DNA of 64,000 nt. Source: Okamejei kenojei (taxonomy: Eukaryota). The stretch spans positions 52,142,001 through 52,206,000 of the forward strand of contig CM069140.1 of the NCBI GenBank assembly GCA_035221665.1. Reading direction: 5' to 3'. The position numbers and the translations under genes were made by a program. Below, one piece after another: positions 1,105 through 63,582 of this stretch (positions are counted from its first letter, which is position 1; each line of letters opens with the position of its first letter). The notes under the pieces are model-generated. The model did no database searches and was not told the DNA's origin. It worked only from the letters and a program-made list of their open reading frames with translations.

Positions 1105-1199
1105 TGTCTGAAGAAGGGTCTCAACCCGAAACGTCACCTATTCTTTCTCTCCAGAGATGCTGCCTGTCCCGCTGAGTTACTCCAGCTTTTTGTGTCTAT
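1105..1199 (+). mobile_element. Short Penelope-like terminal repeat copy with intact hammerhead-like core
   Basis: CTGAAGA-AGGGTCTCAACCC-GAAAC-GTC at 1108-1135, followed by the family body gagatgctgcctgtcccgctgagttactccagc. Confidence 0.75.
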
Positions 1200-1884
1200 T
1201 TCCAATTAGCTTTGTTGTGCTTTATTTTATCTGCAATACTAGCTGTAATACTACCTTCCGCACTTTACTTATTTTCCCTTTTGAGCTATACCAATACGAA
1301 TCGTTTCAGTGTAGAATACTGATTGATTTTTCCTGATATTACCGGTTGTAGTGCCAGACTACTGTTTTAGTAGAGATCAACTCACTCGTGGATTGAAAAT
1401 TGATACTTCTGTAAAGTTCAGTAAAACATTAGGCAATGTTTTTACCAGCTGCTTAGACTGATTTGTGCCATTACATAAATATTCTTTCCTCAGTGTGACC
1501 AATATTTAAGAAGCCTCTTGGCTTAATACACTGAGGGAAAAAAATCAATGATAATTGAGATATGATAATTGTGACATGATACAGTTTTAACGTATCTGGA
1601 ATACGATTCTTTATCCCCTTTTGATACATTTCAACCAACTATCCTTAGTTTAAGCTTTTTCAGCATAGAATGATAGTAATATAATTAGAAAGTTGTGAAT
1701 TTCTGTTCACAATCAAGGAAAACATTGAGTTCAACAGCTGACATTAAGATGAATAATTCCTCTTTGGTCACTAGTCTTAAACATATACCATTTCTCTCCC
1801 ACTGATGCTCCCTGACCTGCTGATTAGTAGACGTCTAATGTGTTGCTCAGACTAACGCTGTCTAACTCAGTTTCGATTGGATAG

Positions 1885-2200
1885 GTTTAGATTTTATTAT
1901 TGTCATGGCTACCAATATACAGTGAAAAGTTTTTTTTTTGCATGGTATCCAATCAAATCAGATAATACCAGACACAAATACAATCAAGTCAAACTCAAGT
2001 ACAATAGGGAAAGATATAGAGCGCAAAATGCCATTCTCAGCGTTGTAGTGCAACAGTTATAGAGAAAAAGTCCACAATGAGGTAAATGAAAATGGACTAT
2101 ACCCTTGTTTATGGAGGGACCATTCAGAGGCCTGATAACAGAGGGGATGAAGCTGTTCCTAAGCCTGGTGGTGCATGGTTTCAAGCTTCTGTATCTTCTG
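1885..2200 (-). mobile_element. Rex1/Babar-type LINE 3' end fragment
   Basis: Minus-strand peptide TTRLRNSFIPSVIRPLN resembles the C-terminus of the RT element at 31455-32622 (TTRFRNSYFPKAIRLLN). Ends in AATAAA plus a short-repeat tail. Confidence 0.6.
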
Positions 2201-2318
2201 CACGATAGTGAGGTCAGAACTGACAGTCTTAAGTAGTGTTTTGTCTGTGTGTTACATTCGGCAACATGCAGAGAGAAAAACTGAATAGAGGGTAATAAAA
2301 GATGATCAATCAGGTATT

Positions 2319-2500
2319 AGAACACAAAGTATTGCAGTAACTCAGCGGCATCTCTGGAGGTTGTGGATAGGTGACGCTTCGGTTTGGGACACCAGTCTGT
2401 CACCTGTCCGTGTCCTCCAGTGATGCTGCCTGACCGCTGAATTACTCCAGCACTATGTGTTTTATGCACGATTCCACCATCTGCAGTCCCACGTGTCCAC
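2319..2500. mobile_element. Fold-back (inverted pair) Penelope-like terminal repeat, degraded
   Basis: A minus-oriented copy (about 2319-2390) is followed by a plus-oriented copy (about 2398-2500). Imperfect flanking repeat aggtattag/aggtagtag. Confidence 0.65.
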
Positions 2501-3054
2501 AATAGGTAGTAGTGCTGGCAATGTTCTGGTGTTTGACATTGTTGGTTAAGTATAAGATGTTTGAGGGTAAAAGGAGGAAAGGTTATCGGAGGAAGGCATT
2601 TGCATCTCTATCGTAGAGTTGTGAATTACTTAACTCACTTTACATTAAAAATAATAATTTCTTACAGATATATGTAGAAGTGGATTTAGCAAAGTTTACA
2701 ATGTTGATTACTGATTTCTTGTGTTTTATCTTTAATATATGTTGGGTGATTTCAAATTAGCTTTTAATTCATTGCTGTGTGAGTAGCTGTGGCCTAGAAG
2801 TTGTTCAACACTGCAGTTCTGCATTAAGAAAGAGTTGTGGGTCACCTTGAAGCTGACTGAAGTTTTGTATAAAGAGGGAAAACTTTGTTTGTGTGGTTCA
2901 TAGTTTTTCCCGCGTAATACTTCTCAACAGACATTATTGTTTCCAGCATGGTGTTCCCTCTTCATTTCCAGTTTTCACAATCCTTAGCATCTTGCTTAAC
3001 AATACAGTTCCCAACGTGTTGCTTAGCTGGTGCATTGTATGCAGAGTGCTTTCT

Positions 3055-3337
3055 GAAGGACATAGGTTCAAAGGTGAAGGGGAAAAGATTTAATAGAAAT
3101 CTGAGGGGTAACTTTTTCACACAAAGGGTGGTGGGTGTATGGAACAAAGGAGCTGGTTGAGGCGGGGACTATCCCAACATTTAAGAAACAGTTAGACAGG
3201 TACATGGATAGGACAAGTTTGGAGGGATATGGACCAAGCGCAGGCAGGTGGGACTAGTGGAGCTGGGACATGTTGGCCTGTGTGGGCAAGTTGGGCCAAA
3301 GGGCCTGTTTCCACATTGTATCACTCTGACTCTATGA
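3055..3337 (+). mobile_element. CR1/HER1-like LINE 3' end
   Basis: Encodes GHRFKVKGKRFNRNLRGNFFTQRVVGVWN (CR1 ORF2 C-terminus, frameshifted), followed by the gggccaaagggcctgtttcc 3' hairpin and a short-repeat tail. Confidence 0.85.
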
Positions 3338-4544
3338 CAGATTACAATGTAACCAACAGTAATACAGCTGCTGGGGAATCTAGCTGTTGAATTGTTGAAA
3401 TCTGAATGTCACTGTTTCTGGAGTGGCAAGACGAATGACACCTAACTGTTCATCGATAAATAAGAACTAATTGAAGTTCAAAATATCGCAGCTGAAGAGC
3501 TTTTCTGAACTTTGTTGAACTTGGATGATGGAGTTCAACACCAGAAAACAATTAAGGAAATGACATTTTTTTCAAAAGCATCACAAGACTGATCCCAGTG
3601 CCAGAGCCAAATTATGATTTGAGAGGAAGTCACTGGAAAATAACCTTAGTTAGGATTGTATACGTTCGTAAATGATGTGATGAAATAAATTCAGGATAAT
3701 TTCTAATTAATTACAAAAATAAATCAAGTGACCCAAGTTCAAATTAGTAAAAGGTAACTTTTAGGCTGATATTGGAAAGTTTTCACACGAGAAATGATCA
3801 GTACGTGGCATGGATTTTACAGTAGTCTATGCATATGGAAATCCTGAAATTAATTAAGGAGCAATATTGCAAAAAGGGTTGACTTGGTTGGATGAATTAA
3901 ACTAGGCTACATTACTTTGTAGATTTATCACAAGATTTGGATAATGAAATTTTCAGAGTCTTGCGTTATATAATATTTGTTTCAGTTGTGGAGGATGTGG
4001 CGGAGTAGGATTTATTATTTTCTCATATATCTGAGGGCTTTAAGAATAAACCATGTGGTGTGTACATATAGGACAGATTGGGAAATAATTCAGCTATTCC
4101 ACACGTGTTATGGCATTCCAGCAACAATCGTGGTCAGTTTTTGGTACTAACTAGATTTTTAAATCATTTTCCAACTAAATATGTTTTGCATTTACAATTT
4201 CAATAGTACAATATAGTATATAACTTGATTTTCAAAGCAAAATTACATTTTTCTTGATATCCGCAACAGTTCAAATGTTTTGTTTTGGGTGAGTGGCTAG
4301 GTATATGACATAGCAAATAGTTATTTATTTTTCCTGCCCTTAATTCACATGACCTTTACCTGTATAGAGCCATCTGTCAAACATTTGTGGGTGGAGCAAA
4401 GATAGTGAATAGCTGTCAAACCCTAGCCTAAGGCAGTGCTTCTTAAACTGGTGAATGAAATTAGTTTGGGGTGCATTAAACTAGTGGGGTGAATGACAAA
4501 TGATCTAGATATTTATATATTTTTTTCTACACTTAAAAAAGGCA

Positions 4545-7258: not shown

Positions 7259-7391
7259 AAAGATTTCTGGACCCAAAACGTCACCCATTCCTTCTCTCCA
7301 GAGATGCTGCCTGTCCCGCTGACTTACTCCAGCATGTTGTGTCTATCTTAACATGCATCTGCAGTTCTTTCCTACACAAAAGATTTCTGGA
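7259..7391 (+). mobile_element. Penelope-like terminal repeat copy with 13-bp TSD
   Basis: aaagatttctgga is duplicated at 7259-7271 and 7379-7391 around the family body. Confidence 0.85.
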
Positions 7392-10734: not shown

Positions 10735-10884
10735 ACGTTGAATTTCAGTCTGAAGAAGGGTCTTGACCCGAAACACCTCCTATCCATGTTCTCTGGTGAT
10801 GCTGCCTGATCTGCTGAGTTGCTCCAGCGTTTTGTGTCTTCCCCTGGTAAACCAACATCTGCAGTTCATTGCTTCTACGTTGAA
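10735..10884 (+). mobile_element. Penelope-like terminal repeat copy with 8-bp TSD
   Basis: acgttgaa at 10735-10742 and 10877-10884. ctgaagaagggtcttgacccgaaac core starts at 10750. Confidence 0.8.
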
Positions 10885-11223
10885 GACGTCACTTTTCGCT
10901 CTGCTGCAAATCTGATCTGATAGGGTAGTAGTCAGCAAACAACATGACAGCATGTAAAGATTTATTCCTCCTTTATCATGGGGACGTCTGCTGATAGAAA
11001 GCCACATGGTTTCCAATGGTTTCCCAATGCCCAAGAGACAACTCGGGACTATAAGACTGAAGGAGATTGCAAAGAGGGGCAAGCGAGTGGACACGTTTGA
11101 ACTCATGGGTGGAAATTTTAAATGTATCATTTGAGGTTCTAGAAGCGATGTTTTCCTTTGGAGTATTTATACTGTCCATGAAAATATTCATGCTGCAGTT
11201 AATTTGAGAATATTAAAAAAAAT

Positions 11224-11523
11224 CTTTAGACTTTAGATATACAGCATGGAAACACACCCTTCGGCCCACCGAGTCCACACCGACCAGCCATCACTCCATA
11301 CACTAGCACTATTCTACATATTAAGGACAATTTACAATTTACAGAACCCAATTAACCATCAAACCTGCATGTCTTTGTGTCTGTGAGTGGAAACTGGAAC
11401 ACCCAGAGAAAACCCACATGGTCACAGGAAGAACGTAAAATCTCCGTACAGACAACGCCCGTAGTCAGGGTCGAACATGGGTCTCTAGCGCTGCAAGTCA
11501 GCAACCCTACCATTGCACCACTG
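11224..11523 (-). mobile_element. tRNA-derived SINE (HE1/V-SINE-like)
   Basis: The minus strand shows a tRNA-like head with A/B boxes, the central ...gtgaccatgtgggttttctctgggtgttccagtttcc domain and a CR1-like 3' tail. Homologous to 30090-30392 and 40550-40846. Confidence 0.8.
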
Positions 11524-13679
11524 TTATTATTCATTTTTTTCTATTCATGATTTATTTTTCAGTTGTTCAACAGCTCTGTTGGTCACAGGGAAATTTTCAA
11601 GCTGCACAATTGGGGCCTGGCTATTTGAGCTGAGTCCTCCATGCAGACACTCAATGGCCTTACTTTGGCCATATGCATGCTTAGGAGTTAAATCAGCCTT
11701 CATTTATTCTGAGATCTGCTTCAGTTTTAAGACCTCACAGTTTGACGTGAGCTATTACTGAGGATTTTTACTGCTGTTGCCATTCCACTGCTTGTCATAT
11801 GATGGCTTTTAATTTAAAGCAATTAGTGCACTCTGAAATGACATGATCCACGGAGTGGTCATAATAGGTATCAGAAAAAACTCCCCTGGTCTCCAAACAG
11901 CTCTTCAGTTACTGGGACTCATGTATAGTATTTTTGCAGCTGGCAAATAAGACTTTTGCATATTTACCTTTTGTAACAGAATTGATGCGAATAGCTTGGA
12001 AAGTGAGGAAGAAACATTAGCAATCAAATGCATGACAAATAGGCATTCCCGAGTCTGAGGCATTTTTCACTGCTTCAAACCATCACATAAGCTCTCTGCT
12101 TTTGAAGTTAGTCAGTCAAACAATGATAATAAACACTATCAGCTTAACATAGGATGCGGCTCCATTTAACATAGGTCTCAGTCTTTAAATCAACTTCATT
12201 TGCATTTTACAAAAGCCGACTGATTTTTCTTGGCTATTGATCGCACTCACCACTTTATCTTTATTTTCCGATGGTGGGCAATATATCGATGAACAAAATG
12301 AAATGCAAATGTCAGGATTACAAAGGGTGAAATTGATCTTTGATGGCATTGCAGAGAGGACAATGACAAATTGTTTGCCCTTTTTTTACCAATCAGTCGC
12401 TTATCTTTTCCAGAGACTGTAATATAAAAGAAGATTGCAAAAGCTATAAAATAAGAAGCAAGGCTGCTATAAGTTTTTTTTTTCTTGCCACTGGTATATA
12501 CTAATTTTGACCCCAGCATTTTTTACTGTCATTTCGCATCTCTAACATGTATTTAATTTTCTGATGACTAGTAAATGAGAACTATAAATGGTGAAAGTAT
12601 TCAACAGATCAGACAGCGTCTGTGTGGGTAGGGTTAATTTAATATTATTATTCAGACCCACTGTCCTTGTTCTTTATAGTGCATGGAGAAAAATGTCAAT
12701 GAATCTTACAGTTACTAAAGTAATTTGCAGTATCAAGTAAATCGTTCACTGTAGATCTGACTGAAGAATGAGCACTCAGGAATGAATATGGACAAAATAC
12801 ACAAACTTGATTTCTTATCAAAGAAAATAGTGGCTTTTTTAAGCTGCAAATTGCTCTCTGCCAAGATTCTCAGAGGAAATGAGAAAATAATCGGAAATAT
12901 ATGGTCTAATGGCAAGCCAACATTGAGCTATGAGAGGGTTAAAGCGTTTGGTGAAGTAAATACATGAGGTTTACTGCAGCTGAAAACATTATGTCTTTTC
13001 CTTCCAAACCAAAGTAGGCTGCTTGAGAACAGGGACCCTCCACATATCAGCAGTATTTGTCAACTGACTTACAAAGACAATTTTGGACAATAGTAACTTT
13101 AATTATTTGATTTAAAAAAAAGAAAGTTTTTAATATGTTGAGATACTTCCAGAATAGTGTCATTATTTGATCTTATGTCAGCAGCTAAATTTGACTTTGG
13201 TGTAAAATGATCAGCTAATTGATAACCTAATTGACTTTAGAGGCTCATAAACCAAATTAAGTTTTTACAGAAGTTAACAATACATTTGTTTAAACTTATG
13301 GGTTAATCATGGATTAACCTCTTTTAAGATGGGGGGGGTTACCAGTTAGAGAAAGTAATTTTTCTCAGGTCTATTTCTTTGCACCCTTTGAAGTTTCTGT
13401 TCATCTTATGTCATCCCATCTCTGGGAGTAGAAGTAAGGGTAAGGATCTTCCTCATAGGCTCATTCAGGCCTATTGAAATTACTGGCCACAGAACATGTG
13501 GGCTCTCTGTAAAGAATGCCAACATTGAGTGGGTAAAATGCCGTCGTTGGGAGACACCAGGATGTGTGCCTGAGCAACCCATTCATATCAGGAGGTGATA
13601 CATTATCCAGATCATCTGAATGGATGAGTTCATAGTGGTGCAGGAACTGGGGTGAGAGAGTAAGATCAGTGATGCAGAC

Positions 13680-16044: not shown

Positions 16045-16325
16045 TGTGTGTAGGAAGGAACTGTCAATGCTGGTTTAATCCAAAGACCGACACAACAAAC
16101 TGGGGTAACTCAGCGGGTCAGGCAGCATTTTTGGAGAAAAGGAATAGGTCACTTTGCTGGAAATAAGCTGAAGCCTATCTCCAGAAACACTCCAACATTT
16201 CAGATCAGAACAAAACAGATCAGTCTAAAGGAGGGTCTCGACCCAAAACGTTACGCATTACTTCCCTTCAGAGATGCTGCCTGTCCCGCTGAGTTAATCC
16301 AGCATTTTGTGTCTACCAACATTTC
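16045..16325. mobile_element. Two Penelope-like terminal repeat copies in opposite orientation
   Basis: Minus copy at about 16047-16155. Plus copy at about 16221-16315, flanked by ccaacatttc at 16192-16201 and 16316-16325. Confidence 0.75.
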
Positions 16326-17460: not shown

Positions 17461-17484
17461 ACCCACTGCAGTTTGCCCATGTCG

Positions 17485-20829: not shown

Positions 20830-21705
20830 GGCGCTACTAGAGAGCGAGCTACACTCGACTTTCTCTTGGGAAAGGAGTTTGGGAAGATGTCCATCAGCCG
20901 GCGGGGAACACTTTGGGACCAGTAATCATAGTTTTATTAGTTTAAAGAGTTATGGTAAAAGATGGGACTGGTCCATTAGTTAAAATCCTCGATTAGAGCA
21001 AGATTAATTTTGATTTCATTGGACAGAAACTAGCTGTGGAGAGTGCTAGCAAGTAAAGGGATGTCTAGCAAGTGGGAGGCTTTTAAAAGTGAGATAGTGA
21101 AAATTCAGGGTCAACGTGTTTCTGTTAGAGTTAAGGGCAAGGTTGACGGGCTTAGGGAACCATACCTAGTTGGTGAAGGATGTTGAGGCTCTGATTAGGA
21201 AATAGAAGGCGGCATATGTGATGAATCGAATAAAACCCTTGAGGATTACATGGAACGAAGAATATAGAACAGGTGTACATGGAACATAGAACATAGAATA
21301 GTACAGCTCAGGAACCACCCACAATGTCAATGCTGAACGTGATGCCAAGTTATGCCAATCTCCTCTGCCTGCACATGATCCATACCCCTTCATATCCATG
21401 CACAAAGTGCATCTTAGGACCTCGATGGAATCAAGGAGAGACACTGCTGGAGACGTGGCAGAGATTTTTCTTGGTACAAGAGACTGCAGATGCTGCAATC
21501 TGCAGCAAGAAAAATTGCTGGAGGAATTCAGTGGGCATGACAGATCAATGGAGGGAAATGGACAGTTGACATTTCAGGTTAACCACTGGTAAGGTACCGG
21601 AAGACTCGGAGGGTGGATAATGTTGTGACTTTATTGAAGAAGCACTGCAAGGACAGGCCAGGGAACTTTAGGTCGATGAGTCAAAGATTAGTGATGGGAA
21701 AGTTT
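20830..21705 (+). mobile_element. Degraded CR1 internal fragment with nested CR1 3' end (-, ~21285-21405) and Penelope-type repeat (-, ~21470-21580)
   Basis: Remnants of TLDFLL..GEHFGTSNH (endonuclease end), WEAFKSEI and the W..ANV..L.KK..KD.PGN.R motif. Confidence 0.6.
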
Positions 21706-22517: not shown

Positions 22518-22630
22518 TGTGTAGGAAAGAACTGCAGATGCTGGTTTAAATCGAAGGTAGACACAAAATGCTGGAGTAACACAGCGGAACAGGCAGCATC
22601 TCTGGAGAGAAGGAATGGGTGACGTCGAGA
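22518..22630 (-). mobile_element. Penelope-like terminal repeat copy
   Basis: tgtgtaggaaagaactgcagatgctgg...ggagagaaggaatgggtgacgt is the reverse complement of the family consensus. Confidence 0.8.
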
Positions 22631-22804
22631 TTCTTGTCTAAATGTACTATTAGTCCCTTGTTCATTTATACTGTATACTGAGGTCAAAATCAATGGTACG
22701 TTTGCATTTTTAAGCTGTTTCTATTTCCTTACAATTTTGAAGTCATGCATCTCTATGTTGCACTTTTTATATCTTCATTTCATCTTAGTTTCTTTTTTAA
22801 TTGA

Positions 22805-30080: not shown

Positions 30081-30089
30081 ACAAGATGT

Positions 30090-32622: not shown

Positions 32623-32709
32623 AGATAAGCGGGTGGGTCAAGGAAGCAAGTAGTCAAAATTTGGGAAGATCAATGCACATGTGAAGTCTGTGTCTGATGA
32701 TATTGAATG

Positions 32710-32996: not shown

Positions 32997-33884
32997 TAGG
33001 CATGTTAGTGAAAACTAGGAAGAGCCAAATAAGAAGCATCTGGGATACTGAAAGTAATTTAGGGGATGTACTTTCTAGTACATATAGTGTTGCATTTATG
33101 GTTTATCTCAACTGTATTCTTAACATACCTCATTTACAAGGGTAGATTGATGCAGATGTATTACTTTCAGGATTTTGATAATGTGCAATTGTTTGCTTGG
33201 GTCTATCTTGGCTTCCCTTATATTTTATCTTCCTACCCCATAATTAAGGGCTTGATCTATTGTTGGGGCCTCTTCTTACAGCATTGTGGAATTTGAGAGA
33301 TTTGCCTGTGTTGAAGAGCACATGACTGACTCTGTGACAAGGATTAATCTGAATGAGTGCACACACTGGGTCCATTGTGCATAATTATAACATACTTAAA
33401 GAGAAGGTAAAAGTCTAGATTATAGTGCAGCTGTAAAGAGCAATGCAAGAAAATGGCAACTATCAATAAATGATTTTTAGCAGTATATTATCCAGATTTT
33501 AAGATTTTAAATAAGTGTCTGAAAACAATTTTCAGTGTGGACTTGTTCAATATATTTTGTATGGAAATTCTTACTGTGTACAAAATTGTTGCAATAAAAA
33601 GGAACTGCAGCTGCTGGTTTTTTACCAAAGATAGACTCAAAATGCTGGACTAACTCAGGAGGTCAGGAGCAATAGAATATTGTTGTTGTGGATCTGGATT
33701 ACATTGATAGTTCTCACTATTTTGATAATGAGTTTATCTTCTGGCTATGCACCAGATCATAACATGCATCTTGAGATAGCAGGCTGTTTAGTCTGAGGTA
33801 CTTAACCAACGTAGTACACTCAGATTGCAGATCTCATTTGCATGAGGGAATCTAGGTACCAAGTGAATGAACCAACATTAAGCA

Positions 33885-35090: not shown

Positions 35091-36684
35091 GTTGTCGGAT
35101 GGCATAATACAGTAATGGAGTACAATAATGGAGTAAACATAATACCTGTAATCTAACTTACTGCTTGATATCTTTAAAGTTTGCTTTATTTGGCAGCATT
35201 TCCACCTTTTGCAATAATTACTGCAACAAATGGAAAATATTTGTTTATTCGTAATGTGATTCCATGATTATGATAATCCAGACTGATGATCAAAAGTACT
35301 ACATGAAATAACATAAATATAAGAGATGTAAAAGAATGAAAGTGAAGAGGCAATTAACTTGGAAATGTCTAATGCAAAACACAGCTTTTAATAAGTAGGA
35401 GTAAAGGAAGGAAAGGAAATGATTTTGTATTCTCTTTAGAGGCTAGTGCAAAATGATTTGAGGAATAAATAACTGTACATCAAATCTTTCACTGATAAAT
35501 CAAAAAAATCTATTTGTATTATATGTGAAAGTACGCAAATCAAATTTTGCATGTGTTAAAGTGCAAATTGCATTGAAGTGTAACAGGCACGCTTATAGTA
35601 TGTTTGATTCCAAACTTTCTCCAAAAGAAACAGCAAGAGCTTTGCTGAAGGCAGCTGCTGATCCTCTTAGTTTTTATTGGAAAGCCGAGAAATAATGGAG
35701 ACCTTGGAGGCCCTCAGGGTTGCTATGGAGAATATATATCTTAGACTGAAGTTGAATCCACAAAAATTAAGAAATGTTAATAAGATAGTCAAGTGAATTA
35801 AGGATGTTAACAATGACATAACTAGCACAGGGTAAATGTTTTGTGAAGGTGAAAAGCATTTGCTACAATTCACAGAAACTTATAACATGTTTATGTAGAG
35901 TTTATTAAAAACATATCATCGCTGTAAATGGGTCCTTTGAGTTCTAAGACTGAAACTTCAGTTTTATTCCAGCTGTGCTGAATTACTATGTTTCAATTCC
36001 TCTGACATTTGAGATCTTGCTGTAAATTATTGGCCCTCATTAAGGTCCTGTATGTTCCCAATTAAAACAGGGGTAGACTATACACGCACCTGTGGTCTTT
36101 TGGGTAAACTATTGCCTGATGATGAGATATGATTCTCTTAGAGAGATCTCTCAGGTCTTCAAAATTGCAAAGACCATGTGCAGACAATATAATGTGAATA
36201 AGTGTAGGCTTATTATCCATTTAAATGTTATACTGTTGAACTTAACACATCTTCAAGGAATACTGCAGGAATTGACATCACTCTACTAGCCCGTGACAGG
36301 ATATTCTGAAGCTCTCCTACTCTTTGGCAAAGCCATCAAACAATTCCCTCCAGCTGTGAATGGAGCCTCTGGATTATACACCTCTCTGTTAACTGCTCTA
36401 CATTTATTCTGTTTTTGTCCAACAGGAGGCAAAATTCAAGATCCAATAGCATAAACTTATCTGACTTTTTAAGCTGAACTACAATTTTTATTTCCACAAG
36501 ACTCCATTCAAAGCACAATATTTTTGTGGTAATGGGCAGTATCTTTTACATTTCTCCCTGGTTGAAGCCAATAGAAATATGACCTCTGAATTTCCTGATG
36601 GTATGTCAATGACTTGGACCTTGTGTAATTCAGGGTCCTGCCCTTCCTCCCTTCCAGATTTCTTCCCTTGTGCCCTACATCAAT

Positions 36685-36778
36685 CAGTCTGAAGCAGGAT
36701 CCTGACCCGAATCATCTAATATCTATGTTCTCCAGGGATGCTGCCTGACCTGCTGAGTTACTCCAGCACTTTGTGCCT
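36685..36778 (+). mobile_element. Penelope-like terminal repeat copy, degraded
   Basis: cagtctgaagcaggatcctgacccgaa...gatgctgcctgacctgctgagttactccagcac. Confidence 0.7.
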
Positions 36779-38383
36779 TAAATTCTCTTTTTTGCATAGC
36801 AAGCTTGGGGCGATCTCCTTTCCCTTCAGTTGCCACAAAATATTTACCTGGTGATGCCAGTAGTCTCAGTTTGAAATTGAATCAAAACATTGACTGACAT
36901 TTGGGGCACTCGTACCTTTCTGCGTGTTGGTATGTTCCTTCCCTTATATTCCCAGTGAAAATCCCACTGAGAATCTGATGTGCAGTCAGGAAACATCCCA
37001 GTTCAGGGGAAATGGATTGATTTGTGAGGCAACTCTGAAGCAGCAGAAATCCAAATCCACATCATTTTCCCACCTGCCTGTCCTGAGCAGTGCTCAGTTT
37101 GGCTCCGCGGATCAGCAATGAAAGAGTGTTTCATCCATGGTTAGATGAGATGATCAATTTCGTTCCTCATAATCCATTGACATGCATTTAGCGATCATAT
37201 CACAGATCATGTTTTGTATAGATAACCGACCTTGAGACCAAAGACATGTAACTTGCAGATTTGGTTATTTGCCTGGCTGGGAAGATCTTTCCTCTTTTTC
37301 TTCAAAATTCAGGACTGAGGGAAACCAAATCATGCAGAGATGGGTTCCCTGAAAAACAAATTAATTATCTCCCACCCTTTAACACCATTGCAGTTCATAA
37401 CAATAGATTATAGTAGGAACATACTTTGTCTGGTATTATTGGCAGGACATAGATTGTATAATATATATTTATGTTCCTTATGTCTCATTCTAAAGTACTA
37501 GTCCATTTTTAGGCATATGCATTCAATAGTTATTGTAATGTAAAACCCTGGAGGCGAACATCCATTTCAATTCATAAACGAGATACTGAAGAGGTGATGA
37601 ATGCTAGGAAGAAAAATCAAATCCAATGTGTTTAAAGAACTACTGTGAATAATGAATGCGTTTAAAATATAGTTATTTTCACATGGATTTGAACAGCTCA
37701 CAATTAAGCAAAAAATAATTTTCACTCAGTTGGTCTTAAAGTTTAACACTATGAAATAAAAAAAGACTATTAAATAATGTACTTTCTCAATAGATAGTAT
37801 TTTTAATTCTTGAATTTATGTTGATTTCTTATGCAAGGATGGTGGTGCGATTAGGAACTGGCCATAACTTTGCAAAATAATATTTTATGTTATCTGATGC
37901 GCACAATGGGGTTCACAAGAGAATTATTCACTTTTGCTCATAATCTTGGGAAGCAACTTGGGGGTAACGATTATGTCAGGCAATTAAAATAAAAAGAATA
38001 ATTTCAAAACTAACCGATTAGCTGTATTGTTTTTGATCTGTCAGGATTTGCACTGCAGCAGCTGTGAAATATCTGCTGCTGCATAAAGCTGCCAATGTGG
38101 TGATAAGCCAAGTGAGACTTCCTAGCCAGTTGTGTTGGGAACTGGGTGTACTCCAAAAATTCTTCTGATGTAATAGCACCCGTTCATCTTCAGCTGAAAT
38201 AAGAATTTTGGATCGTTACTTTTAACCTTTATTTGCTCTTCCCATTGGGATGAAAAGATCATTGTTATTGGTCATTCAAGATGGGAAATGGCCATTTGTA
38301 CTACATCAACATAATAATTGAATGGTCACCAAACTCTCCCTAATTTGGTGCTGTGGCATTTGTTGCATCTGAGAGAAAGAAAA

Positions 38384-39008
38384 CTAACCTAGTTCCTCTA
38401 ACCTCCTCCAACCTCATCTACTGTATCCGGTGCTCCAAGTGTGGGCTCCTATATCGGCGAGACCAAGTGTAGATTTGACAATTGTCTCGCAATATCTCCC
38501 TGTTGCCAAACATTTTAACTCCCCTTCCCATTCCCACACTGACCTTTCTGTTCTGGGCCTCCTCCACTGTCAGATGGAGCCCACGTGCAAATTGGTGCAA
38601 CAGCACCTCATATTTCACTTGGGCAGCTTACAAACCTGAGGCATGAACATTGATTTATCGAATTTCAAGTAACTCCTGCAATCCTTCCCCCCTTCCCCAC
38701 CCTAGTCATTGTACAAGCTCTATTGTTTGCCTCCTTGTATCCCTATTGTTATCACATCTACTCCAACCAACAGTGAGCCATTGTGGACTCCACCCTTCCT
38801 GAGGTCATCTGTTACTGGCCCTGTTTTGTTCTAGCCTTCTCTATTTTAAAGCTTTTCACTGTACCTCGGTACAAGTGACACTAAACTAAACTTAATCTTT
38901 CAGTCTGAAGAAGGGTTCCACCCCACAATGTCACCTATTCCTTTTCTCCAGAGATGCTGCCTGACCCGCTGATTTACTCCAGCATTTTGTGTCTAACCTA
39001 GTTCCTCT
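38384..39008 (+). mobile_element. 5'-truncated Penelope-like element: GIY-YIG endonuclease fragment plus terminal repeat, 16-bp TSD
   Basis: Frameshift-corrected TSSNLIYCIRCSKCGLL(Y)IGETKCR...LPVAKHFNSPSH...QHLIFHLGSLQ..GMN. Terminal repeat at 38900-38995. ctaacctagttcctct at 38384-38399 and 38993-39008. Confidence 0.88.
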
Positions 39009-39841: not shown

Positions 39842-39991
39842 GATGCTGAGTGTTTAAGAAAGAACTGCAGATGCTGGAAAAATAGAAGGTAGACAAAAAT
39901 GCTGGAGAAACTCAGCAGGTGAGGCAGCATCTATGGAGCGAAGGAATAGGTAACGTTTTGGGTCGAGACCCTTCTTCAGACTGATGCTGAG
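39842..39991 (-). mobile_element. Penelope-like terminal repeat copy with 9-bp TSD
   Basis: gatgctgag at 39842-39850 and 39983-39991. Confidence 0.85.
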
Positions 39992-42347: not shown

Positions 42348-43552
42348 TACCTCTCAATCTTCTAAACTGGAGCTGATTTAACCCTCGCTGGATAGTACGC
42401 CAAATACAGCTGTTCACTGAATTGCTTCCAGAAGATTGGTGTTATCAATGCCCTTTACAATTGAAGCATAATCTCCCTAATTTTATATTTAATTCTGATT
42501 TCAAATTGAATAATATTCTGTTAGCATCCCTAAAAACCTTCTATACCTTCATGCTAGCATGATTTTTGATTTGAACATCTGAACATGGAGGTCCTTCTGC
42601 ATTGCAGCCACTCAGTATATAGATAATGGGTTTTTTTCCTGCTAAAATAGACAATTTTCTATTTTCCCACGTTACACTCCATTTGCTAGATCTTTGACCA
42701 TTCAATTAACTTATTTACATCCCTTTGTAGTCTCCTTGTGTGTTCTTTATTTTCCTGCTAGTCAACAATGTTTCTTCAGCTGCTGGTATTACCTCAGCCC
42801 TTAATCCTTAAGCTCAAACGTTCATATCAGTTGGCAGTTTTGTTCTGTTGAGATCTGTTGTGTTTCTCTTTCCTTGCATTCTTTGATAGTGAGGTTGTAT
42901 TATAGATTCAGGATCTACAATAACTTGGGTTTTCAAGGAAATATTTAAAACTGCAACATCTGAGACTGTTGTTTCTTGACACGTGCTTTCAGACTTGCTG
43001 CCAGTCTTCAGCCTTTTCTGTAGCTGTTTCAGAGTTTCACCCTCTGTCGTGTTCTGATTTTTGACAGCATTGTCCAATTAACAATGTTAACCTTACTGAG
43101 ACTTACGATGAGAACAAAATATAATATTTTCACTTCACAATTCAAATGCATTCTCGATTTCAATATTCCTTGATCGTTATACTGGAAATAACTTGTCAGC
43201 AATCGGGGAATAATCCAAATTCATCTTGAAATATTGGCAAGCAGTTTCCCTTTTCTTCCTGATTTCGTTTTTGACTTTAGATTTCTTTTGACAAGATTTC
43301 CACAGCAATTAATTGACTTTAAGGATCAGGTGAAATTTATCTTCTGACCTTCCATTCTGCCACTAAAGACAATGATTTGTGTGAAAATTATATAACAAAA
43401 TTCAAGTTTACAGTATTAATAAGTGTGAAGCACCGAAATAGCAATTTTGTGCGGTGTTGGTGTTAGGGTGGAGTTTCGCTTCTGCATTAACAAAGAGTAA
43501 TGATCGAGATATTCACAACATTCTGAGTAGGCACAACTGGAATAAAATGGTA

Positions 43553-43980
43553 TAAAAAGGAACCGTAGATGCTGATTAATACTCAGCGCGACCAAGCGTA
43601 GACTCTGACCGTTTCGCTGAACACTTGCACTTGGTCCACATAGACCTACTGGATTTCCTAGTTGCTAAACGCTTTAAATCCCCTTCCCATTACACCACTG
43701 ACTTTTCGTCCTGGATTTGCTCCATTGCCAGAGTGAGGTCACGCGCAAATTGGAGGAACAGCTCCTCATGTTTCGCTTGGGTGCCTTATAACCCAGCAGT
43801 AAAGAACATTAAATTATTCAATTTTAGGTAACCTCTATAAACACTTCCCACCCACCCCCATCACTTCCTCCACTAAAAGTCGGTTAACCAGTTCCACAGT
43901 TTGCGATGATGTATTCCGCTTGGGATCACCCAATCCCTAGCCTGACCGGCTGAGTTGCTCCAGCATTTTGTGTCTATTTT
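43553..43980 (+). mobile_element. Second Penelope-like GIY-YIG fragment with inverted 5' piece and terminal-repeat remnant
   Basis: TKRRL.DRFAEHL...VAKRFKSPSH...KLEEQ.LMFRLG.L.P is homologous to 38400-38670. Degraded flanking repeat tggaata(aa/c)atggt. Confidence 0.75.
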
Positions 43981-44149
43981 TGGAATACATGGTGGTCCTT
44001 GGAATATCAGTGGAATCACCATCTACTCACGGCTCAGACTCCTTTCTCATAGGATTATAGTGTAAACTTTGAAAAAGTGATTTGCCTTTCTGAAACACTT
44101 AACATCAAATACATTAAGTCAAATGGCATCTCATAATTTGACAATCTGT

Positions 44150-45844: not shown

Positions 45845-46195
45845 GGTTTTGTTTATTGTACCGAGGTACAGTGAAATGCTTTTGTTACGTGTTAACCAGT
45901 CAGCGGAAAGACAATACATGATTACAATCAAGCTGAAGATAGACACAAAAAACTGGAGTAACTCAGCGGGGACAGGCAGCATCTCTGGAGAGAAGGAATG
46001 GGTGACGTTTTGGGTCAAGACCCTTCCATTTACAGTGTACAGATACATGATAAGGGAATAACATTTAGTGCAAGATAAAGCCAGTAAAGTCCGATCGAAT
46101 ATAGTTCGAGGGTCTCCAATGAGGTAGATAGTAGTTCAAGACTGCTATCTAGTTGTGGTAGGATGGTTCATTTGCTTGATAACGGCTGGGAAGTT
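45845..46195 (-). mobile_element. Rex1-type 3' end with nested Penelope-type repeat (~45935-46027)
   Basis: Minus-strand FPAVIKQMN terminus and a gtacaataaacaaaac tail. The nested repeat matches the family consensus. Confidence 0.6.
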
Positions 46196-46259: not shown

Positions 46260-47133
46260 AAAGACACAAATTGCTGGATTAACTCAGCGGCTCAAGCAGT
46301 ATATCTGGAGGACATGGAAAGGTGTCAATTTGAGTCGAGACCCTTATTTAGACTTTGACCCTTCTTTGACCCTTTGGGTCCCGACTTAACAACTTCAACA
46401 AGACAATGTAATTTGTGTTGTATCTACTTCCCAGTGCAAGCAGATTCTTTCTCAGCAAATGAAGAACTTTACATCTAATTATCAGGGTGGGTTTATATCT
46501 GTTGACTGATATCTATAAAATCAAGGCCCATCAATGATTAGCTACTGGGTGGGGTATTACTTGACTCTTAAAATGCCATCTTCCATTGATTTATGAGATT
46601 ACCTGCATGCTAAACGGATTTATATTGTTGAAGTTATAAATTTGTTTTGACTGTAGCATTATATAATCCATTCACTTAGCTATCATATCAACTTGCTATC
46701 CAATCATCAAGTCTGAACAAGTGTCCCGACCCAAAACATTGCCTATCCATGTTCACCAGGGATGCTGCCTAACCTGCTAAATTACTCCAGCACTTTGAAT
46801 GGTTTTTTGTAAACCAGCACCTGCGATTCCTTGTTTCTACTGATCAAAAACTTAAGTACTTCACTAATTACTACAGTAAAATAATCCTAAATTTAGGTAA
46901 AGTAAGTTAATGGCAATTTTAGTTTGGTTTAAGGAATGTATTCATTGACATTTTAATGTAATGTGCACTTTGTAGGCAAATTAAGTCAATATTACCAGCC
47001 ATTACTTTTTCCTAATCTATTTGACACTCCGACCCAAATAGGTGGTGAAGGGTTTCGACCCGAAACGTTGCCTATCTCCTTCACTCCTTAGATGCTGCTG
47101 CACCCGCTGAGTTTCTCCAGCTTTTTGTGTACC
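46260..47133. mobile_element. Cluster of three Penelope-type terminal repeat copies (~46260-46353 -, ~46710-46840 +, ~47045-47133 +)
   Basis: Each carries the gaccc(g/a)aaac...gatgctgc...ctgag..tccagc motif. Confidence 0.75.
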
Positions 47134-47826: not shown

Positions 47827-48031
47827 TTGTACAATATTGTAGGTACACAAAAGGCTGGAGAAACTCAGCGGATGCAGCAGCATCTAAGGAGCGAAGGAGA
47901 TAGGCGACGTTTCAGGTCGAGACCCTTCTTGTAAACATGCTTCTGCTGCACCCACTGAGTTTCTCCAGCCTTTTGTGTACCCTCGATTCTCCAGCATCTG
48001 CAGTTGCTTCTTTAACATTTTGTACAATATT
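47827..48031. mobile_element. Fold-back Penelope-type repeat (subfamily B) with 12-bp TSD
   Basis: ttgtacaatatt at 47827-47838 and 48020-48031. Inverted arms tacacaaaaggctggagaaactcag / ctgagtttctccagccttttgtgta. Confidence 0.85.
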
Positions 48032-48975: not shown

Positions 48976-49256
48976 ATAATATCTGGAGAATGCTACCGGA
49001 TCCATTACATGAAGGAGCGTTCCAAGTCCTTTATACGCAATCCATATGTAGCTGCTCTGTATAGACAAGTCGGCTGCTTCATCTTTGGCTGTGCTATCAG
49101 TCAGTCCTTCACTGACATTGCAAAAGTGTCTGTCGGCCGCCTGAGGCCACACTTCCTAGATATTTGCAATCCAAATTTTTCAACCATCAACTGTTCCCTG
49201 GGTTACATTGAGAACTTTGAATGCAGAGGCAATGAAAGCAAAGTTCAGGAAGCAAG
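48976..49256 (+). CDS. PLPP3: PLPP3 exon 3 (contains PAP2 catalytic motif C1, KxxxxxxRP)
   Basis: Acceptor ttttgttaacAG and donor GTAGGA at 49257. Length 281 nt, phase 0->2: [94 protein letters not shown]. Confidence 0.96.
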
Positions 49257-50625: not shown

Positions 50626-50867
50626 GCACTATCTTGAAGTTCCTTTCAAAAAGGCAGATTCTGTTTGTGGGCAACCATAAAGAGAAGGGGAACATTTTTT
50701 TTTTTAACATTGTATCCACAGTGAGACTAATCTAGCTAGGTTGATCTTTGCCGGAGTGAACTTTGAGCTTTTGGGAATTAAAGTTTTGCCATGTTGTGTG
50801 CTTAGCTTATGCCGTATTGCTTAAAAAGGTCTGATCATTAAATAATTATTTTTGTTTTGTTTTCCAG

Positions 50868-50925
50868 GAAGTCGTTCTTTTCAGGACATGCCTCCTTCTC
50901 ATTATATACCATGTTGTATTTGGCA
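50868..50925 (+). CDS. PLPP3: PLPP3 exon 4 (catalytic motif C2, SGH)
   Basis: Acceptor tttgttttccAG and donor GTAAGT at 50926. Length 58 nt, phase 2->0: (R)KSFFSGHASFSLYTMLYLA, in frame with exon 3. Confidence 0.96.
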
Positions 50926-56004: not shown

Positions 56005-56095
56005 GAGACACAAAATGTTGGAGTAACTCTGAGTTACTCCAGCATTTTGTGTCTATCTTCGGTTTAAACCAGCATCTGCAGTTCCTTCCTACACA
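56005..56095. mobile_element. Minimal fold-back Penelope-type repeat
   Basis: agacacaaaatgttggagtaactc-t-gagttactccagcattttgtgtct forms a near-perfect palindrome, followed by the family 3' tail. Confidence 0.8.
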
Positions 56096-56186
56096 AACCA
56101 CTTATTATTGTTAGTTCATGTAAAACATCAATCTATATCAATCTTAAAATTAATATGTTATAGGTTTTATTTTAACTGGACCCCAG

Positions 56187-56676: not shown

Positions 56677-57834
56677 GTAATGGCTTCTGTAGACTTACCT
56701 AGTCATTTATTTCACATATCTCAAATCCTGCATAAACAAAAGTTTTTGTTTTTAACAGTAAATTTTAACAAGCAAATAGTAAACATTAAAGGCTTCAAAG
56801 CTGTCTGTGAAATGTATTCAGCCCAAACACTTATTTTCTGGGAGCTATGCACACCAACCATGTGGTGTGACGGCAGAATGATTCTCTTATACCCACATAT
56901 TCATAACATGTTTTGAAAATAATTTACTGTGTAATTTATGTCCCAGTGGTGTTGATCCTTTGTATTACACTTAGTGATGCCAAATAGCTCTAGTCTCCAG
57001 TGAATACTTTACATGGTTTGGCATATGTACAACAGTTGCTGTGTATTAGGCCATGTGCATTTGTTTGAACTTTGCTCTTTATTTACAGGAGATACCATCA
57101 GCTACCTCATTTGTGTACATTGCCCTACATATGGAAACATTCTCCTATCGGGCAGCAGCAAATCCATAATTTTCCTTGATATGAAAAACTGGAATATTGA
57201 TAATTTTCTAGCCTTTATTATCTGTGAGGGTTATCACGATCACTCATTTGTATGTTGCATGCAAATGTTTTTTGTGCATGAAAAATATTTTAGATCAATA
57301 GCAGAAAATTCAAATTTCTGCTATTAATCTATAGAATTTATTTTTCCGTAGGTATCCTATTTAAATGCACACTATCGATCAGGGTAAATGAGCTCAGCAT
57401 TAGTCAGAACTTATACAAGCAAGCATTTTCTGGCATTTACAAATACAAATCAGTTCCCTCTTGTCGCTTATTATCATGTTCTGCTAAATCTGTAAATGAA
57501 TTGAAACAGGCATTGGACAACAGTTCCATTTTATGCTGATGGATTAACAGAAATAAATAACTTTCATTTATGTAATTCCTTTCACAGCCTCAGGATCTCT
57601 CAGTCCTTCTTTGTCAAAGGAGTACTTCTCCATTGTGTTTGCTTTTGTAATGCAGGAAAATATAAACAGTAATGCATGGTTGAGTTGCACAAACAACAGT
57701 GTAAGAAACTATCTGAAAATCTGTTTTGGTGATAACGGATGAGGGATTTTGTCTGCACACATGGAGAAATTATTACATATTTTCAAATGGTATCAAAGTA
57801 CATCTTGCTTGATCTTACCAAATGCTTGATTTAA

Positions 57835-57925
57835 TGAAGGGTCTCGACCCGAAAAGTTACCTATTCCTTTTCTCCAGAGATGCTGTCTGACCCGCTGAGT
57901 TACTCCAGCTTTTTGAGTCTATCTC
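57835..57925 (+). mobile_element. Penelope-like terminal repeat copy
   Basis: gaagggtctcgacccgaaaagttacctattcc...ctgagttactccagc. Confidence 0.8.
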
Positions 57926-59533: not shown

Positions 59534-59679
59534 ATCTGATTCTCAGAATAGACACAAAAAGCTGGAGTAACTCAGTGGGACAGGCAGAGATGCTGCCTGT
59601 CCTGCTGAGTTACTCCAGCTTTTTGTGTCCATCTTCGGTTTAAACCAGCATCTGCAGTTCCTTCCTACTCATCTGATTC
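59534..59679. mobile_element. Fold-back Penelope-type repeat with 9-bp TSD
   Basis: atctgattc at 59534-59542 and 59671-59679. Arms gacacaaaaagctggagtaactcag..ggacaggca / tgcctgtcc..ctgagttactccagctttttgtgtc. Confidence 0.85.
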
Positions 59680-60790: not shown

Positions 60791-60927
60791 ACAATAATTA
60801 TTTAAAGATGACACAAAGTTCTGGAGTAACTCAGTGGGTCAGGCAGCATCTCTGAACAAAAAGGATGGGTGACGTTTCGGAAATGGACCCTTCTAAACCA
60901 GCATCTGTGGTTCATTGTACAATAATT
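60791..60927. mobile_element. Inverted-junction Penelope-type repeat with 9-bp TSD
   Basis: acaataatt at 60791-60799 and 60919-60927. A minus-oriented body is followed by the plus-oriented tail aaaccagcatctg. Confidence 0.8.
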
Positions 60928-62347
60928 TAAGTTTATCAGCAGATTTAATTAAGATGCAAAATATATTCAGACAAAAGCTGTTGCCATTATCTCCAATATT
61001 CTATATAATATAGTTGGAATATTTTTAACTCGTTAGTTTCCAGGCCAAGCAGCAACTGTGGAGAGAGAGTTAATTTTTCAGATTTATAATTAGTTATCCA
61101 TTATCAGATTAAAGGTCATCAATCTGAAGTGTTAACATTGCTATTATCTCCATAGATGTTGCTTGATAACTGAATATTTTCTTGTTTTATTTCACTTCTC
61201 CAGTATGTGCATTTTTTTGCTTTTGATTTCACTGCTGTTTCCATTCTATTTTCTGTTTTACAATAGCCTTCAGCCATCTGGTCATTGGATGTATGTTGGT
61301 CATATGCAGCAGCACAAAACAAGCCAATGTAAACCAGTGGGTGGCTGTACATTCGACCAGATTTTCTACTGTCATTGGATCAAATAATATCTTATAGGCT
61401 GATTCTTAATTGTGTGCTTTCTGCTGCTGCCCAAGACTAATTTCATTTTTACTGCATCACTAGTCGATATTTTAACATACCAGGAAATTAATCATATTCA
61501 AGCAATTACAACAGGTAGATATTGCTGTGCAGTAATAGTTGAATGAGATCTGCTTTGGAAGAGCCTAGATGAGTTTGTGCAATTTGTTTGGCTATAAATG
61601 TTAATTAACAAAAAAAAGTTTTATTAATACCTAAAATCACTTTAAACCACAATTAAACAGTTAATGTTTGATGGCGCACTTGGAATTCATTCTTCCTAAT
61701 ATCCCAGTCATAAAGATGTATCGACTAATTTGAAACTATTAATGTATGCAAATGACTGACTGATTTATGATCAATGAAGCAATTGCATTATTCTTTTAAG
61801 GCAATGGTTACTGAATTTCTGTGATTTTCCAGAGCTTTTGTAATGAAACCTGATATGGGGGGAACTGGCCTGAGTTATTTGTATGCTTTAGTACTCTCGA
61901 CACTTGACAATGATCACAAAACAAATTAAGTTTCCAGTGCCTATAATTGCATGCCTTTCAAACAATGAAATATAAAAGAAGCAAACTACAGCACTTCCTG
62001 TCAAAGACAAAAGCTGTAGGTTCTCGTCTGGCATTTTATAAAGCACAGATTTGACTAATTCCCTGGTTTATGTTCTGCTTCAACAGCTGATGACAGCCGT
62101 CAGTTCTATATAACAACGGCCCTATGGGGAAACATTTACTTTGATGTCACGGATGTTAGATTGTATTTGCAATAAGATTAAAGATGAACCAAATCACTGC
62201 TATACCATAATGGACTGTTAACTTGAGTTATTCTGCTATCGCCAATCTCTGTCATCCACTTCTGCGATAGTTCCCCCTTCGGATTTTGCTTCTACAGATG
62301 TACTCTCTCTACTACAATCTATGTCTAATTTACTCTCCCCACTACTA

Positions 62348-62430
62348 TCAGTCTGAAGAAGGGTCCCGACCCAAAAACGTCACCCGTCCATTTTCTCCGC
62401 TGAGTTACTCCAGCACTTTGTGTCAATCTT
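62348..62430 (+). mobile_element. Penelope-like terminal repeat copy (internally deleted)
   Basis: cagtctgaagaagggtcccgacccaaaaacgtcacc...ctgagttactccagcactttgtgtc. Confidence 0.75.
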
Positions 62431-62489
62431 AACCATTTCAAATAGTTAGTTTTCCTTGTTACTTTTAGTTAACTTCACAACTCGAGTCA

Positions 62490-63582
62490 TGGACTGTTAT
62501 TGTTCATGTTTGAGGTATTGTAGATAGCTTATGAGCTTGTCCAAGGCTACAGAAGGACATAGATCAGGTGGAAAGTTGGACAGAGCATTGATACATGCCG
62601 AGCAGTGCAGTAATGCATTTTGAGAAGTGAATTAGGGGCAGGACAAATAGAATAAATAATAGGGCAATAAGGAATATTGATGAACAGAGACTTAGCGGCC
62701 CAAATCCATAGTTCCCTGGAAGTGGCAACCCGGGTAGATAGGGTAGTGACGACAGCATATGCCATGTTTGCCTTTATCGATCAGTGCACAGAATTATAAA
62801 AGTTATGTTGCAACTTTATAAAACACTGGTCAATCTACCCTTGGAATATTGAGTCCAGTTCTGGTTGCCATCCTATAGGAACAATGTAATTGTGCTGGAG
62901 GGAGTGCAAAGGAAGTTCACAAGATGTTGCTTGGATTGGAGGGCTTTTGGTGGGCTTTTGTAAAGAAGAGAGATTGGAGAGGCTGGGCTTATTTGCCTTG
63001 GATAGAAGTAAACAGGCGATCTGATATAAATAAATTAGGTTATGAGAGGCATAGATGGAATAAATAGGCAACATCTTTGTCCCTTTTATCAAAAACAAGA
63101 GAGCGTAGGTTTAAAGTGAGAGAAAGGAGCTTTAAAGGGAAAATGACGTTTTTTTTTGTTGCAAAGAGTGGTTGGTATCTGGAGTGTACACAAAAAGCTG
63201 GAGAAACTCAGCGGGTGCAGCAGCATCTAAGGAGCGAAGGAGATAGGCGACGTTTCGGGTTGAGACCCTTCTTCAGACCCTTTATCTCCTTCGCTCCTTA
63301 GATGCTGCAGCACCCGCTGAGTTTCTCCAGCTTTTTGTGTACCCTCGATTCTCCAGCATCTGCAGTTCCTTCTTTAAAAAAAAAAGGTTGGTATCTGGAA
63401 CTTGCTGCCAGAGGAGATAGTGAATCTGATTACAATTGCAATGCTTAGCAGGCTCTTAGACAGACATTTCAATAGGCAATGCATAGAAGGACATGGCCTT
63501 AATGCAGACAAAATGGTGTAGATCGGCAAAACGGTCAGCATTGTTATGGTCGACCAAGGGGCCTCTTCCTGTGCTGTATGAC
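62490..63582 (+). mobile_element. Degraded CR1 3' ~900 bp, interrupted by a fold-back element
   Basis: Remnants of EQRDL..VH.SL.VA..VD.VV, YKTLV..LEY.VQFW.P, ERLERLGLF.L and a CR1 3' hairpin. Confidence 0.75.
63170..63399. mobile_element. Fold-back Penelope-type repeat (subfamily B) with 14-bp TSD and intact hammerhead-like core on the - strand
   Basis: ggttggtatctgga at 63170-63183 and 63386-63399. About 59-bp inverted arms (63187-63245 / 63283-63341, one mismatch). Core at 63249-63276 on the minus strand. Confidence 0.88.

Follow-up and report, generated by a model that had tools for sequence, protein, structure and literature searches.

Hammerhead-bearing short repeats in the cartilaginous fish Okamejei kenojei as probable truncated ends of a Penelope-like element

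Introduction

In a 64,000-nucleotide stretch of the Okamejei kenojei genome (GCA_035221665.1, contig CM069140.1, positions 52,142,001 to 52,206,000 of the forward strand; hereafter the window), a short repeat recurs that resembles, in part, the minimal hammerhead ribozymes (HHRs) carried in the terminal repeats of Penelope-like elements (PLEs). This raises the question of whether the repeats are 5'-truncated ends of such an element or a non-autonomous family like the short interspersed nuclear elements (SINEs), and of what the hammerhead does in them. It is very probable that they are 5'-truncated 3' ends, consisting of the pseudo-LTR (long terminal repeat) with or without a tail, of a very abundant endonuclease-containing PLE of the Neptune/Nematis type in cartilaginous fish.

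The repeat family

An initial annotation, made from the letters alone, described about 25 dispersed copies, some 2.5 kb apart on both strands and falling into at least two subfamilies, and this description holds. A search profile seeded from 15 repeat segments, which match by construction, gave 37 matches in the window at E<=1, of which 31 were at E<1e-3, while the same profile gave none in the reversed window used as a control; a single copy used as BLAST query returned 32 high-scoring segment pairs at E<=1. The 31 segments form 26 loci after merging of five inverted pairs, or about one per 2.5 kb, on both strands, and differ from their majority sequence by 0-38% (median 13%). Both named subfamilies were found, together with a third (here A, B and C). 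That first account had overlooked long copies bearing an endonuclease, an optional tail of ~40 nt and the inverted pairs.

In contigs of three organisms (organisms A, B and C), ~280,000-310,000 contig records per DNA run match a 1.85-kb stretch with two copies, which shows that the family is very large, contig-record totals and summed contig depths not being copy numbers. One contig of organism B bridges the tail junction of the copy at 39851 (47 letters inside, 31 differences in 919 letters), so that this insertion is shared and old; other junctions were reached by fewer than 31 letters in contigs and were left uncounted. No empty-site joint was seen among the 15 listed of 2,891 contig joints.

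Linkage to a PLE endonuclease

The origin from a PLE terminus, as first proposed, is borne out by two copies whose upstream sequence becomes that of a GIY-YIG endonuclease. One of them, at 38903-38995, forms the 3' terminus of an insertion of ~600 bp (38400-38995) with a 16-bp target-site duplication (TSD), one copy of which lies 504 nt upstream of the 38903 copy and the other directly downstream (null best score 10 in 40 trials), and the endonuclease remnant and the hammerhead are both inside this one duplication. Translation of the upstream part, 38400-38672, gives the final portion of the endonuclease, with changes of frame, and a second remnant stands upstream of a short copy at 43940. When nine PLE-type proteins were searched against the window by tblastn, they matched at 38386-38669 and 43604-43828, the remaining two matches being traced to the unrelated N-terminal reverse transcriptase (RT) part of P0001. 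A CxxC motif is present in the first remnant, and two His motifs are found across both remnants taken together.

Among 16 candidate proteins, 13 were homologous to a 47-residue stop-free piece of the remnant, and a 58-residue piece matched 135 proteins at E<=0.001. The named homologues are from Leucoraja erinacea and Rhinoraja longicauda; two homologues, P0107 and P0123, combine an RT, a CX4CXXC linker and an endonuclease, and the Pfam GIY-YIG model matches the homologues at E 1e-4 to 3e-2, mostly at or under its cut-off. As read from these translations, the parent has the make-up of an endonuclease-containing PLE, with a GIY-YIG domain and CCHH motif at the C-terminus of the open reading frame (ORF), followed by a pseudo-LTR. 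The Neptune/Nematis assignment is drawn from the homologues because the window copies start downstream of the linker, and the linker zinc finger CX2-5CxxC is present in the close homologues P0009 and P0011.

The annotated skate proteins P0001, P0005, P0009 and P0013 end in a PLE endonuclease remnant, which probably reflects gene-model artefacts or exonised repeats. A short piece of another repeat occupies 38855-38895 of the long copy's pseudo-LTR, and a longer copy of that repeat, at 45840-46100, hosts the stub at 45938-46026.

3' ends, tails and inverted pairs

Along the element, the endonuclease stop codon is followed by the pseudo-LTR, then by the minimal type I hammerhead and finally by two alternative 3' ends, which lie ~63 nt (tail-less) and ~100 nt (tailed) past the predicted cleavage site. 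The ~40 nt that separate these ends correspond to the optional PLE tail. There are seven head-to-head inverted loci (2321, 43552, 47843, 56005, 59543, 60805 and 63185), and in all seven one tailed arm is joined to one tail-less arm, two of the tail arms being weak matches (E 0.079 and 0.81); their TSDs are clean in four, offset in one, imperfect in one and absent in one. Simple twin priming on one RNA, as in LINE-1 (a long interspersed nuclear element, LINE), yields arms without overlap, whereas five of the seven loci here have arms that share 25-65 nt of template, which would call for two RNA templates or strand displacement. No paper on twin priming in Penelope was found by title or abstract in the accessible literature. 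The window copies show an optional tail of 30-40 bp, 5' truncation, an inverted 5'-truncated copy and TSDs, all of them PLE hallmarks.

All eight TSDs that had been named at the outset were recovered, at 7259 (13 bp), 10735 (8 bp), 16192 (10 bp), 39842 (9 bp), 47827 (15 bp, one mismatch), 59534 (9 bp), 60791 (9 bp) and 63170 (14 bp). Among 300 random position pairs the best score was at least 8 in 38, at least 9 in 7 and at least 13 in none, so that an 8-bp TSD is weak by itself. TSDs were detected in 6/8 tailed solo copies and 3/11 tail-less ones (p 0.07), and a long-range search succeeded for 3 of 16 queries, with one further 9-bp match at null level.

These arrangements also bear on non-LTR retrozymes, in which tandem HHR repeats spread via circular RNA. 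Animal retrozymes derive from PLE pseudo-LTRs and are reported in one chondrichthyan, but no tandem array of the unit is present among the six TRF rows for the window, and the copies are solo or inverted, with variable 5' ends, rather than units running from cleavage site to cleavage site; an origin of this kind is thus most improbable.

At 38944-38995, contig joints reach back 52 nt from the tail-less end (15, 15, 21 and 5 contigs; 80% likeness), and these may be partial tandems elsewhere in the genomes or mapping artefacts. A conserved structure joining the tail with the upstream part was considered and dropped, RNAalifold on 12 tailed copies giving three pairs and no covariation.

The hammerhead core

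None of the 11 conserved core positions is missing from the majority sequence, which also carries an additional A behind A9, a stem II of 4-5 bp that includes G10.1-C11.1, an ACGU stem III without a loop, a GUC triplet at the cleavage site and a stem I of 2 bp, in which 85% of cells are paired and for which examples also exist in the published set. The initial reading as a minimal type I hammerhead therefore agrees position by position with the published consensus (CUGANGAH / stem II / GAAAN palindrome NUH), including the extra nucleotide after A9 and the palindromic stem III, and the consensus fits both the majority sequence and 2/10 core-spanning copies. The exact core pattern occurs three times in the window against 0.35 expected, and the core together with the ACGT palindrome is kept in only two copies (1108, plus strand; 63276, minus strand), making two of the ten core-spanning copies intact. 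The repeat had also been said to begin with this motif: the motif is real, but the usual 5' start is not there, with C3 reached in 10 of 28 aligned segments. G12 is an A in 8/17 copies, a loss attributable to CpG decay because G12 sits in a CpG, while the other core positions are mutated in 13/144 cases. Judged by these letters, most window copies are dead hammerhead ends and few are intact.

A loose-end consensus (1,071-1,727 contigs per site) has an intact core in organisms A, B and C, with agreement of 0.56-0.61. Between subfamily majorities, 1-2 of the 28 hammerhead positions vary, compared with 8-16 of ~61 positions further downstream and 11-20 of ~41 tail positions. This pattern suggests that the hammerhead is under constraint in master elements. 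The exact hammerhead pattern had no match in viral contigs and metagenome contigs.

The segment 1080-1200 (plus strand), put forward for cleavage assays, turns out to be a poor choice of substrate: in the predicted fold the core is paired away and stem I is absent (z -0.36), and stem I of the 1106 copy has a computed probability of 0.00-0.01. The ACGU duplex is predicted to contribute only -1.7 kcal/mol.

Weighing the alternatives

Several results weigh against the reading as truncated PLE ends. The clade rests on homologues, the linker lying upstream of the endonuclease motif in 14 of 142 retrieved proteins, and tblastn with PLE proteins found no PLE-type RT or full-length element in the 64-kb window. 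Stem covariation, suggested as a check in the initial annotation, is not significant, the score of 0.119 being reached by 38/500 shuffles; two pairs show two-sided change and 38-123 of 500 shuffles reach the observed measures, in a set of 16 closely related copies with little power. The suggested Rfam search likewise gave no hammerhead among eight window matches at E<=1, and none among four matches at E<=10 for 1060-1220, while Fisher tests of hammerhead against downstream differences were significant in one of three (p 0.008, 0.08 and 0.32). Rfam matches to microRNAs and 3' untranslated region hairpins were set aside as lying below gathering scores, mostly on inverted arms.

The negative covariation and Rfam results, together with the 2-bp stem I and the weak ACGU duplex, could also mean that the motif is a non-catalytic hairpin, a protein-binding signal or a chance look-alike that never cleaves in this lineage. 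Published minimal HHRs cleave poorly, and insertion of the anole PLE in vitro does not require its HHR (PMC11167929). Yet the majority sequence lacks none of the 11 core positions and has the extra nucleotide too, the motif sits where PLEs usually carry it, conservation extends across subfamilies and three organisms, and the anole HHR cleaved in the presence of protein and was responsive to C3G and G8C (PMC11167929). A non-catalytic motif is rated unlikely, though less so than the other alternatives considered here.

Whether the repeats are 5' truncations or SINE-like had been left open, and a plot of 5' ends relative to the core had been proposed; it was run on 24 of 33 window segments whose 5' ends are fixed by a TSD, an inversion junction or a surrounding repeat, with hand-set coordinates. 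Those at 392, 1779, 21481, 36687, 46353, 46711, 47047, 57836 and 62351 were left out for lack of a boundary. The defined ends are scattered from about -500 to +100, which favours truncation over a SINE-like subfamily, and 13 of the 24 segments span the cleavage site. In the opposite direction, 7/24 ends fall in -5..+12, above smooth truncation models, and the best 18-nt window holds 8 of the 24 (scan p 0.036 and 0.049 under two fitted models). The proposed plot thus yielded a weak cluster, with 17/24 ends elsewhere. A pile-up at the cleavage site itself was rejected (3/24 within 4 nt; p 0.10-0.15, not significant), as was upstream sequence shared among stubs (1/66 pairs at p<=0.02, not significant given the number of tests).

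The cluster at the core edge is only a hint, and it is the one result for which a SINE-like subfamily is still considered, in which an RNA of ~95-140 nt from the hammerhead 5' edge, supplied by short copies or produced from a pseudo-LTR transcript by processing or splicing, would be mobilised in trans by the PLE protein. Other observations would fit such a part: six of the nine segments without a boundary also lose homology at the core edge, unassigned 5' sequence lies inside the TSD of the 16202 copy, and of the 1106 copy if its TSD is real, a short RNA stretch suffices for priming in the anole PLE (PMC11167929), and in a rotifer pLTRs (pseudo-LTRs) mobilised other sequence in trans. TCAG stands directly before U2.1 in 6/10 core-spanning copies, in some after a pyrimidine-rich stretch; by analogy with Drosophila virilis Penelope, where an intron ends at helix I, this is a possible 3' splice site. 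Against a SINE-like part, there is no fixed 5' end, and the long copy at 38903 resembles the stubs in its subfamily A-type 3' sequence and in its divergence from the majority (8.4%). No tRNA gene was called in the window, the copies have no poly(A) end, and no start or end pile-up of molecules was seen in contigs, which is weak evidence as these are contigs. The upstream pseudo-LTR is moreover pyrimidine-rich and unalignable between copies, which mimics a pile-up. Such a SINE-like part is considered improbable.

A broader and more speculative proposal, held to be just as improbable, is that skates and rays harbour a promoter-less SINE-like swarm of perhaps 10^5-10^6 hammerhead-tipped stubs, remobilised in trans from short copies that start at the core edge, possibly at a 3' splice site. 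The PLE 5' inversion would then supply the missing half of the minimal hammerhead: an inverted arm ending at the cleavage site would build a long stem I, creating competent ribozymes by insertion, many of them in introns. The example is 63185-63345 (minus strand), where the inverted arm is predicted to pair with the sequence after the cut, giving an intact core a long stem I (stem II p 0.84-0.99, first stem I pairs 0.67-0.78, core mostly open). This geometry occurs in one of seven inversions, on the strand opposite the host gene, and may be due to chance. If it were true that inversion completes the hammerhead, two unexplained PLE features would gain a role together.

Proposed mode of insertion

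Returning to truncated PLE ends, the insertions could arise as follows. By analogy with the anole PLE, the PLE protein would nick both DNA strands, and reverse transcription would be primed internally at either of two RNA sites, giving the two 3' ends; synthesis would usually abort after ~100 nt. Priming of one strand would leave a solo stub, and priming of both, once per site, a head-to-head pair, with overlapping arms pointing to two RNA templates or strand displacement. The template RNA was uncut wherever a copy spans the cleavage site, that is, for 13/24 boundary-defined segments. In the stubs the hammerhead would be a passenger; selection probably maintains it only in master elements, in which cleavage would proceed as a dimer via the ACGU palindrome or be aided by the PLE protein.

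Genomic setting

The features of the family are collected in Table 1. Exon-like stretches of a PAP2-family phosphatase gene lie on the plus strand at ~26290-26450, 48976-49240 and 50860-50925 (Pfam E 0.001, 0.04, below cut-off), and the repeat copies between them are therefore intronic; the gene is presumably PLPP3-like. Depletion of sense-strand hammerheads in the host introns was considered and rejected, as 7/10 core-spanning copies are on the strand of the host gene. The stretches 24859-25010 (+) and 26290-26450 (+) are paralogous and exon-2-like (60% identity over 30 amino acids, both with a terminal GT donor) and look like mutually exclusive exons, which are known for mammalian PLPP1.

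A second dispersed family of ~300 bp, with copies 68-74% alike (11221-11524, 22810-23102, 30090-30375, 32706-32995 and 40551-40847), resembles, we assume, a tRNA-derived SINE of sharks and rays, HE1 being a candidate name only. A third family (3080-3343, 23541-23778, 29160-29308 and 30742-31062) looks like LINE 3' ends, which we take to be CR1-like. LINE reverse transcriptase fragments are present at 31445-32182 (+; Pfam RVT_1 E 3e-20) and 17302-17946 (+), and a reading frame at 41677-42048 (-) resembles a Tc1/mariner transposase remnant.

Table 1. Repeat copies and associated features in the window (positions count from its first letter).
Position	Strand	Feature	Evidence
392..419	+	28-bp remnant of tail-less end	profile match E 2e-4
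1106..1200	+	tail-less copy of subfamily A whose minimal hammerhead is intact (core 1108-1135)	possible 14-bp TSD (1 mismatch) 99 nt upstream
1779..1825	+	old remnant	profile match E 5e-4
2321..2490	.	inverted locus, subfamily C, old; TSD search negative	profile and TSD search
7271..7378	+	tailed solo copy, 5' start inside stem II	13-bp TSD
10743..10876	+	tailed solo copy of subfamily C with disrupted stem III and cleavage triplet; catalytic boxes preserved	8-bp TSD
16047..16150	-	tailed solo copy	weak 6-bp TSD
16202..16315	+	tail-less copy with the changes G5A and G12A; inside the TSD, its 5' end has ~16 nt of unassigned sequence	10-bp TSD
21481..21581	-	old tailed copy, 38% off majority sequence	profile match
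22518..22633	-	tailed solo copy	10-bp TSD, 1 mismatch
33592..33672	-	short tailed copy	7-10 bp TSD
36682..36779	+	tail-less copy, subfamily C, broken core	profile and core alignment
38384..38399	+	left copy of 16-bp TSD of long insertion	right copy 38993-39008, 3 nt overlap with element end
38400..38672	+	decayed C-terminal part of PLE GIY-YIG endonuclease, closed by its own stop codon; CxxC region present, along with frameshifts, an internal deletion and a single in-frame stop	tblastn with PLE proteins, E to 1e-21
38673..38995	+	pseudo-LTR of long copy, made up of a pyrimidine-rich stretch, the hammerhead region (C3 at 38905; without G12) and a 3' end lacking the tail	
39851..39982	-	tailed solo copy, G12A; tail junction also bridged in organism B	9-bp TSD
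43538-43551 / 43981-43993	.	imperfect TSD of second long locus	read by eye
43552..43980	+	second long locus, comprising an inverted tail on the minus strand (~43552-43587), remains of the endonuclease (43590-43831), a terminal repeat that has lost the hammerhead region, and a tail-less end	tail match weak, E 0.81
45938..46026	-	tail-less copy, 5' start at G8, within another repeat	profile match
46262..46353	-	tail-less copy, subfamily C, broken core	profile and core alignment
46706..46838	+	tailed copy, subfamily C, broken core	profile and core alignment
47047..47131	+	tail-less copy, subfamily B, 5' start at G8	profile and core alignment
47843..48018	.	inverted locus: tail-less arm (minus, without C3-G5) and tailed arm (plus)	15-bp TSD
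56005..56096	.	inverted locus with two very short arms	10-bp repeat, left copy 37 nt off
57833..57925	+	tail-less copy, 5' start near G8	profile and core alignment
59543..59670	.	inverted locus, no hammerhead remaining	9-bp TSD
60805..60918	.	inverted locus: tail-less arm (minus) and tail-only arm (plus, E 0.079)	9-bp TSD
62346..62430	+	tail-less copy, G12A, internal deletion	profile and core alignment
63185..63278	-	tail-less arm of subfamily B whose minimal hammerhead is intact (core 63276-63249)	pattern and core alignment
63284..63374	+	tailed arm of inverted locus shared with 63185..63278	14-bp TSD 63170-63183 / 63386-63399
10743-10748, 16218-16223, 36682-36687, 38898-38903, 39981-39986, 62346-62351		TCAG before U2.1	

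Comparison with known systems

No prior report of this PLE family in sharks or rays was found by title or abstract in the accessible literature, and cartilaginous fishes hereby join the animals with PLE minimal hammerheads, at very high density. Minimal HHRs have been described in the pseudo-LTRs of metazoan PLEs, mostly as dispersed single motifs from truncated elements (Cervera and de la Pena 2014, PMC4209133). The window repeat shares with that set the core, the extra nucleotide between 9 and 10.1, G10.1-C11.1, a loopless palindromic stem III and a short stem I, while differing in its short stem II (4-5 bp), and cartilaginous fish are absent from the 56 motifs of Figure S3 in that study. 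The 26 loci per 64 kb found here look far above its maxima (~4,000 in coelacanth, 9,000 in Xenopus), its counts being of intact motifs only.

In Neptune and Nematis, to which the linker zinc finger is assigned, Poseidon being without it (Craig et al. 2021, PMC8557442), the C-terminal GIY-YIG with CxxC resembles that of the window family, whose homologues have the linker finger, and the window copies likewise show 5' truncation, an inverted 5' copy, a tail of 30-40 bp at one end and TSDs of ~8-10 bp (PMC8557442; PMC3846280). A bias toward microsatellites is mentioned for Neptune (PMC8557442), whereas none is evident in the window copies. Non-LTR retrozymes (bioRxiv 10.64898/2026.07.22.740005) are similar in being non-coding, derived from PLE pseudo-LTRs and equipped with a type I hammerhead, but they are defined by tandem units, and the window has none.

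A further parallel is PAc, the Poseidon element of Anolis carolinensis, which was studied in vitro and for which a PLE protein dimer is predicted (Frangieh et al. 2024, PMC11167929). As in the window family, its hammerhead is followed at a short distance by two RT start sites, one at each border of the tail, the main start being 85-92 nt past the cut in PAc and ~100 nt in the window family; both strands were extended and uncut RNA was used, and the insertion model given above is drawn from it. The PAc ORF starts at stem II, whereas the window copies have no start codon there, and PAc belongs to a different clade. PLE integration is still poorly understood, and thousands of short insertions of this kind form a data set that logs the start and stop points of reverse transcription, in which the pairing of tailed and tail-less arms at seven of seven inverted loci, five of them overlapping, puts the anole model of two start sites and two strands to a genomic test.

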